13,878 nucleotides of DNA from a virus (lineage: Duplodnaviria > Heunggongvirae > Uroviricota > Caudoviricetes). The notes below the pieces were generated by a model. It searched no databases. It worked only from the letters and a program-made list of their open reading frames with translations, and had not been told where the DNA came from. The position numbers and the translations under genes were made by a program. Position 1 is the first letter of the stretch. Each line of letters starts with the position of its first letter. Shown piece by piece: positions 11,900-11,962 of the stretch. The stretch covers positions 1-13,878 of IMG/VR virus record IMGVR_UViG_2529293142_000032; one strand, written 5' to 3'.

Positions 11900-11962
11900 G
11901 ATGTACACGTGTTAAGGTGTACACCTAGCGAACCAAAACATAACGCCATAGGTGTACACATG
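11900..11962. promoter_or_regulatory. Three GTGTACAC-type palindromic operator sites in the divergent promoter region
   Basis: ATGTACACGT (11901-11910), the perfect 10-bp palindrome GGTGTACACC (11917-11926) and GGTGTACACA (11951-11960), the last overlapping the start codon of the RHH gene. Confidence 0.5.

Follow-up and report, generated by a model that had tools for sequence, protein, structure and literature searches.

A predicted Arc-like repressor, its operators and a putative cis-antisense RNA at the replication operon of a phage-satellite-type island of E. coli

Results

Gene content and layout of the locus

By its gene content, the window (the whole 13,878-nt stretch of DNA analysed here) is an integrative element of E. 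coli belonging to the Gram-negative PICI type, a phage-satellite-type island, and the module described below is its regulatory core. In a relative that is 99% identical, an integrase gene and an HTH_17 (AlpA-like) gene lie to the right of this module and, on the left and all running leftward, there are genes for an Icd-like protein, a 106-aa protein, a DUF4222 protein, a P4-type primase, SSB, ProQ/FinO and PerC; this gives the succession of integrase, alpA-type regulator and then a replication module with primase and origin by which Gram-negative PICIs are recognised. In the window itself, all on the - strand, we found an AlpA-like gene of the HTH_17/excisionase type (12811-13029, assigned by family match) and a leftward operon that opens with a 67-aa Icd-like gene (11617-11820; a member of NCBIfam NF033153, scoring 71.2 bits, E 5.5e-20, where the family cut-off is 25) and continues through 9184-11624 with orf106 (11304-11624), a DUF4222 gene (10998-11297) and a P4-type primase gene with D5_N/DUF5906 domains (9184-11016). 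No capsid or terS family matches were seen among the window ORFs that were scanned; the related islands of Nissle and O157:H7 have both.

Repeats of several kinds lie elsewhere in the window. An AT-rich gap just downstream of the primase gene (8945-9176) holds at least 10 copies of CTGTTCACC/GGTGAACAG in both orientations, and these iterons are probably the replication origin; in P4, the ori and crr iterons are TGTTCACC. At 13088-13170, upstream of the AlpA-like gene, AATAGCCAG occurs in three copies, together with two palindromic pairs of 9 nt, CTTAATAGC/GCTATTAAG and CCCAATAGC/GCTATTGGG, and these are candidate sites for AlpA autoregulation. An IS256-family (Transposase_mut) transposase gene (1-1209, -) occupies the left end of the window and adjoins a PerC-family gene (1382-1678); the distal end of the island may be disrupted by an insertion sequence.

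The region of interest is the 139-bp gap that separates the Icd-like gene from a 64-aa ORF on the + strand (11960-12154, with AGGTG 5 nt before its ATG). From left to right, this gap contains a two-hairpin segment (11820-11890), TGCG, TTTTTT, and three operator-like sites (sites 1, 2 and 3, or O1, O2 and O3), the last of which runs into the ATG of the 64-aa ORF.

An Arc-like ribbon-helix-helix protein

The original prediction took the small rightward gene to encode a ribbon-helix-helix (RHH) protein, and this is borne out by profile and fold, by both of which the 64-aa protein is a member of the Arc/MetJ-type RHH class and Arc-like. A profile of 27 homologue clusters matched P22 Arc in the PDB (E 0.0014) across residues 12-59, pairing the Arc residues Q9, N11 and R13 with residues 19, 21 and 23 of the 64-aa protein, at about 25% identity over some 48 residues; PHROG 228, 'Arc-like repressor', was matched at E 9e-6. 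The AlphaFold model has two helices, at residues 26-38 and 43-57, both with pLDDT above 90, and lacks the predicted beta-strand PFHMRIV (residues 19-25), as would be expected of a monomer model since the RHH fold needs a dimer. Top Foldseek matches were all RHH proteins, namely Arc (TM-score normalised to target length 0.85, probability 1.0), CopG, AmrZ, NikA and ParG, at weak E-values (0.1 or above) that are due to the tiny size of the domain. The family is a small one, with 128 cluster representatives at E 1e-3 or below out of 1.84 billion, 16 of them at 1e-10 or below, and only a handful of homologues in phage records. Residue R23 is invariant among homologues.

The 64-aa gene had also been described as heading a rightward RHH operon, which did not hold up as a conserved unit: orf41 (12158-12283) is what remains of the 3' end of a YlcI/YnfO-type regulator gene, and in other species the RHH gene is followed by neither orf41 nor orf65. 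The last 15 codons of orf41 and the DNA downstream of it are near-identical to an island with an intact YlcI/YnfO gene and, judging from this sequence match, orf41 marks the junction where one repressor cassette took another's place. Past orf65, a terminator-like hairpin, GGCCACC-gtagcg-GGTGGCC followed by TTTTCTTT (12642-12669, +), would end the rightward transcript; it was read from the sequence, having been missed by a scan. On the opposite strand, a 394-aa ORF (11617-12801, -) runs antisense to the RHH gene, orf41 and orf65, and was considered as a gene and rejected, with no family match past its Icd part. The frame is open for 4 to 333 codons upstream of the Icd ATG across relatives, and we favour a shadow ORF because all three + strand ORFs share one frame.

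Two putative palindromic operators change together with the residues predicted to read them

Three palindromes had been proposed between the replication operon and the RHH gene, of which the second and third stand as exact and sole copies and the first is degenerate. Site 2, AGGTGTACACCT (O2, 11915-11926), is a perfect 12-mer palindrome that can be read directly and includes the perfect 10-mer, GGTGTACACC, reported originally. Site 3, AGGTGTACACat (O3, 11950-11961), is an inverted copy of O2, identical to it at 10 of 12 positions, and co-varies in relatives; within it, AGGTGTACAC (11950-11959), whose inner GTGTACAC is a perfect 8-mer, abuts the ATG at 11960. As had been noted for the last palindrome, O3 overlaps the RHH start codon, taking in its first two bases as well as the Shine-Dalgarno AGGTG (11950-11954). 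Together, sites 2 and 3 form a perfect 11-nt inverted repeat, GTGTACACCTA/TAGGTGTACAC, with 21 nt between the arms. At site 1 (tgATGTACACgt, O1, 11899-11910), which lies inside the spacer of the predicted RHH promoter, TGTACA alone is palindromic (gATGTACACg, 11901-11908, one mismatch from GTGTACAC), and the site is partly conserved, with GGT....AC(C) arms retained in some relatives.

Exact GTGTACAC occurs twice in the 13,878 bp, both times here, and exact AGGTGTACAC only at sites 2 and 3; by an arithmetic estimate, about 0.03 chance matches to an exact 10-mer would be expected on both strands. Operator counts at one or two mismatches showed no window-wide significance, and the within-window signal therefore rests on the exact copies and their clustering. 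Operator look-alikes with one mismatch at 4952 and 5080 were set aside as members of a separate iteron family. That family lies in a 350-bp gap between leftward genes (4949-5090) and consists of four AAAGTGTAAATCAAATTC iterons and an 11-nt inverted pair, AGTGTAAACCT/AGGTTTACACT; it is one mismatch from the RHH operator, yet a repeat family of its own.

A comparison with 26 loci from other enterobacterial species, identical in layout throughout, puts the palindromes, the hairpin and the ORF far above chance. The positions of the sites and their AGGT/ACCT arms are constant across these loci, while the central 4 bp vary in step with residues 19 and 21 of the RHH protein: P-H goes with the operator core GTAC, Q-K with GGCC, Q-R with GACC or GGTC, M/L-N with ATAG/CTAT, I-S with ATGG/CCAT, T-Q with ACGT and A-Q with GTGT/ACAC. 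O2 and O3 differ by a mean of 1.07 mismatches within a locus and 4.0 between loci, and the spacer between them has diverged freely. The same correspondence is seen in three more E. coli islands, one of which has a T-Q protein with TACGTACGTA sites; in an island of O157:H7, the homologue is 57 aa long (PPYQMRLP) and two GGTAATTACC sites are present at the same positions, and where islands have a YlcI/YnfO-type regulator instead of the RHH protein, the repeats are entirely different too. The loci are related by descent and are not 26 independent trials, so that there were fewer independent changes than the tally of co-varying loci suggests. Since both sites change together with the residues predicted to read the bases, we see repressor and operator as a cognate pair, and there is strong in silico support for the palindromes being operators that the RHH protein is predicted to bind.

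Could the sites be bound by something other than the RHH protein, for instance by the AlpA-like HTH protein or by a protein of the host or of a helper phage, with the RHH gene merely adjacent, or could the RHH protein be a HicB-type antitoxin? NCBI names some homologues 'HicB family antitoxin', and there is a weak Pfam match to HicB (PF05534); at 16.5 bits, however, this match is below the Pfam cut-off of 21 and covers only the RHH part (residues 20-48), which places the protein outside that family. No match to a HicA-like or other toxin family was found in the neighbouring ORFs, and in most relatives the RHH gene is on its own. The presence of the AlpA-like gene varies independently, this gene being near the RHH gene in some loci only. 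The operator cores change in step with those RHH residues that are aligned to the base-contacting residues of Arc. We consider both versions of this alternative highly improbable and keep to the RHH protein as the predicted ligand of the palindromes.

Predicted promoters that face each other

The operators sit on two predicted promoters. The RHH promoter, P_R (11889-11918, +), has a -35-like TTGCGT (11889-11894) and an extended -10, TGtTAAGGT (11910-11918), with transcription expected to start around 11925; the TGnTAnnnT pattern is retained in 23 of 27 loci at a near-constant distance from the start codon. On the other strand, a promoter scan gave P_L (11937-11966, -; 10/12), with TTGACA (11966-11961) as -35, an 18-nt spacer and TATGTT (11942-11937) as -10, which would drive the Icd-like/orf106/DUF4222/primase operon from a start near 11930. 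Of 25 relatives, 24 retain the P_L TTGACA, which reads TGTCAA on the + strand, whether the RHH start codon is ATG, TTG, GTG or CTG and also when this codon is displaced; a TAnnnT box follows 16-18 nt past the -35 in nearly all loci.

The region had been called divergent, which is right for the genes; the two predicted promoters, in contrast, face each other, each inside the polymerase footprint of the other, because the predicted starts at about 11930 (-) and 11925 (+) are only some 5 nt apart. O2 overlaps the last 4 nt of the P_R -10 and the predicted +1, corresponding to about +5 to +15 of the leftward transcript, and O3 lies in the P_L spacer, adjoining the -35. The dyads of O2 and O3 are 35 bp apart, and cooperative binding is not obvious from this spacing since it is not an integral number of helical turns. 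Both regulatory claims of the original prediction, an autoregulated RHH operator and a switch on the replication operon, fit these data well, the former through sites that lie on the promoter of the RHH gene and have cores that co-vary with its DNA-reading residues, the latter through an operator on the leftward Icd-like/primase promoter P_L. Autoregulation combined with control of the replication operon is the best reading because the operators sit on both promoters.

A putative cis-antisense RNA over the Icd-like leader

Left of the operators, the terminator-like hairpin with a T-run that had been pointed out is real: stem-loop 2 (11856-11890, +) is followed by TGCG and a U-tail, TTTTTT (11894-11899). 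It is preceded by stem-loop 1 (11820-11855, +) and, further upstream, by a predicted promoter, P_as, in the form of an extended -10, TGgTATGAT (11805-11813, +), made up of TG (11805-11806) and TATGAT (11808-11813) and located inside codons 3-5 of the Icd-like gene. From these elements we predict a small RNA of about 80 nt on the + strand (11819-11899, both ends inferred). Such an RNA would be complementary to the leader, the Shine-Dalgarno (11826-11829) and the AUG (11818-11820) of the Icd-like gene, and its stem-loops and terminator opposite a ribosome-binding site are among the features that define cis-encoded antisense RNAs of the FinP, CopA, RNAII and sar type.

To compare the strands, each of 25 loci was folded on both strands separately, and both hairpins proved stabler on the + strand in all 25. 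Mean energies were -21.7 kcal/mol (+) versus -15.8 (-) for stem-loop 2 and -11.9 versus -5.8 for stem-loop 1, with G-U pairs numbering 54 on the + strand and 10 on the - strand. The strand difference for the whole RNA was -11.8 kcal/mol, of which -5.1 would be expected from composition alone (shuffle control), so that composition explains roughly 40% of the bias; mean folding z-scores were -4.65 (+) and -2.55 (-). A covariance model built from 11 loci of one hairpin length class found the element on the + strand of all loci, always at the same place, and did so too in four E. coli islands outside the training set. In the resulting alignment, 94% of cells are paired, and 19 of 23 pairs show compensatory change, figures that come from an alignment fitted to the covariance model and so favour the structure; none of 500 shuffles reached these figures, and slid registers fell well short too. 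A plain MAFFT alignment of the leader followed by RNAalifold detected stem-loop 1 only, missing the terminator hairpin because MAFFT misaligned its two length classes. The U-tail is present in about 20 of the 25 loci, the T-run after the hairpin being poor in the other 5 or so. The RNA is retained even where the first leftward gene is not Icd-like.

The original prediction saw in the hairpin a possible attenuator, that is, a structure acting in the leader of the replication operon or the RHH operon and not the end of a separate RNA. The hairpin does lie within the predicted 110-nt leftward leader and folds on the - strand at -19.5 kcal/mol; the T-run, however, follows it on the + strand only, which is the wrong strand for the replication operon, whereas on the - strand there is an A-run before it and no U-run after. 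Its - strand version is the weaker one in 25 of 25 loci, with G-U pairs turning into A-C mismatches, and G-U pairs, stability and covariation all favour an RNA from the + strand. Transcripts from P_R cannot be attenuated by it, since it is upstream of the conserved RHH promoter, though read-through from P_as into the RHH gene might be, as a minor route. Attenuation thus appears improbable as the main role of the hairpin.

A second alternative does without an antisense RNA altogether and has the hairpins act in the leftward leader, on stability or by sequestering the ribosome-binding site, or merely insulate the switch from stray rightward transcription. We regard this as rather unlikely. On the mRNA strand, an ACC-rich segment further upstream is a possible pairing partner of the Shine-Dalgarno, and covariation appears on both strands in any cis-antisense pair; at the same time, the + strand bias is greater than composition accounts for, the G-U pairs are mostly on the + strand, most loci have the U-tail, and an invariant TAnnnT is found at the right upstream distance and at synonymous positions. 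All 25 loci have the same T, A and final T in that P_as hexamer, and the codon facing the key A specifies H, S, C, F, Y or N but is always NNT; part of this -10 conservation could still be at the protein level because the box sits in coding sequence. The hairpin is, on the comparative sequence evidence, most likely the terminator of a conserved cis-antisense small RNA over the ribosome-binding site of the Icd-like gene.

No Rfam model matched this RNA: nothing came up at the site in the window at E up to 1, nor at the gathering score in 19 related loci; the models for C4, P4 CI and isrK likewise had no match in the window or the 19 loci at these same thresholds, and sar had none in the window. 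Elsewhere, the only Rfam matches were tRNA-Sec, an int-alpA RNA and a MIR395 match that is spurious, being due to the 8945-9176 repeats of the probable origin. The int-alpA RNA (RF02996, 49.9 bits), for which the window itself gave no match, is in a relative from Citrobacter amalonaticus (L003 5311-5378, -).

A gene for a ProQ/FinO-family RNA-binding protein is present in the window at 7631-8155 (-), in the same leftward orientation as the primase gene. FinO chaperones FinP, and a ProQ/FinO protein could do likewise for the predicted antisense RNA. We rejected such a FinO-like partnership as a general feature of the module; it is at most local, because the Nissle and O157:H7 islands have the same RNA but no ProQ gene.

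Discussion

We think it likely that the Arc-like repressor with its operators and the cis-antisense RNA make up two layers of repression that guard the leftward replication operon, a view built on the comparative sequence analysis above. In the first layer, RHH dimers would bind O2 and O3, and O1 weakly. Occupancy of O2 would cover the -10 and +1 of P_R, that of O3 would lie against the -35 of P_L, and, because the operators are on face-to-face promoters, the bound protein would be expected to shut both, giving negative autoregulation together with silencing of replication. A polymerase at either P_R or P_L would, in addition, exclude polymerase from the opposing promoter. In the second layer, a + strand RNA would start at P_as, about at the Icd start codon, and end at the hairpin and U-tail near 11899. 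By pairing with any Icd-like mRNA that escapes, it would mask the leader, ribosome-binding site and AUG and so block translation, and this block would presumably lower expression of the downstream replication genes, by analogy with c4-icd-ant of P1. How the operon might be released is more speculative. AlpA activates PICI genes (PMC6092414), and no - strand terminator was seen in the sequence between the AlpA-like and RHH genes; AlpA-driven leftward transcription is therefore one conceivable route.

One of the closest parallels is plasmid pMV158. Its replication operon is under joint control of CopG, an RHH protein, and the antisense RNAII (PMC4485353), which resembles the combination predicted here of a small RHH repressor and a short cis-antisense RNA that blocks translation and has a terminator hairpin. 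CopG is also among the Foldseek matches of the 64-aa protein. At the same time, copG is co-transcribed with repB, whereas the RHH gene here opposes the operon through face-to-face promoters; the target of the RNA here is an Icd-like leader gene and not the initiator, and pMV158 is a rolling-circle plasmid while the present element is an integrated satellite-type island, with no sequence relationship between the two past the fold.

Phage P22 offers a parallel in its immI region, where RHH repressors act on operators over the closely apposed opposing promoters Pant and Pmnt and one gene of the regulated operon has its ribosome-binding site covered by the small antisense RNA sar. Arc is the best match to the 64-aa protein in both sequence and structure. 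The operator sequence differs, however, as does the number of RHH genes (one here, two, Arc and Mnt, in P22), and the regulated operon is one for replication (Icd-like/primase) here and for the antirepressor in P22. The immI region of P1 and P7 (c4-icd-ant) shares an Icd-like protein as first gene of the regulated operon, and an RNA that hides the ribosome-binding site of icd would gate the genes further down in a similar way; in P1, whether Ant is expressed depends on icd as well as on the C4 antisense RNA (PMC8201110). The C4 RNAs of P1/P7 and the CI RNA of P4 are, in contrast, same-strand RNAs that act in trans on short target boxes, while the RNA predicted here is from the opposite strand and fully complementary to its target.

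Among islands, the Gram-negative PICIs EcCICFT073, EcCIEDL933 and EcCIMP1 have an integrase, AlpA-type HTH, P4-type primase, SSB and PerC in common with this element or its 99%-identical relative, and the same RNA-like sequence precedes the Icd-like/DUF4222/primase genes in the Nissle and O157:H7 islands, which carry capsid and terS genes; this window differs in showing neither among the ORFs scanned. The founding paper on Gram-negative PICIs identified AlpA as activator and called the global repressor 'unclear' (PMC6092414), and a later survey of PICIs mentions C4/isrK-type RNAs only, in another zone of the islands (PMC10111431). In a literature search that was not exhaustive, we found no account of PICIs in which this position has an RHH repressor or a cis-antisense RNA, and nothing relevant on YlcI/YnfO; the parts are textbook, and what appears to be undescribed is their combination, its position within PICIs and the RNA. 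The module offers two testable candidates for PICI repression, which are predicted to act on the promoter and on the leader of the replication operon. It is possible, though somewhat doubtful, that the RHH protein, its operators and the RNA are the missing repression or immunity system of Gram-negative PICIs, keeping the island silent until AlpA-driven readthrough of the opposed repressor gene, and that swappable repressor-operator pairs set incompatibility (heteroimmunity) types among islands in one host.

The series of residues 19 and 21 with their operator cores is a ready-made specificity table for Arc-type RHH proteins and could guide the design of orthogonal repressors. If the pairing is true, GGTGGCCACC would be the preferred site of a variant with H21K and P19Q, and GGTGACCACC that of one with H21R.

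Of 5426 complete E. coli genomes, 1618 (about 30%), Nissle and O157:H7 among them, contain DNA that resembles the RNA region, with a coverage of at least 80% in 691. Current annotation hides the regulator, because in O157:H7 the NCBI pipeline leaves the 57-aa RHH gene unannotated and calls an 'Icd-like pseudogene' instead on the equivalent stretch of the opposite strand; an 'Icd-like pseudogene' is also called in the Nissle island (L037 3138-3731; L036 3409-3888). In the closest relative, E. coli EC12 (L001 9237-9632, 99% identical), about 410 extra bases at this place are annotated as a second, partial Icd-like pseudogene, which suggests a local duplication or insertion beside the switch.
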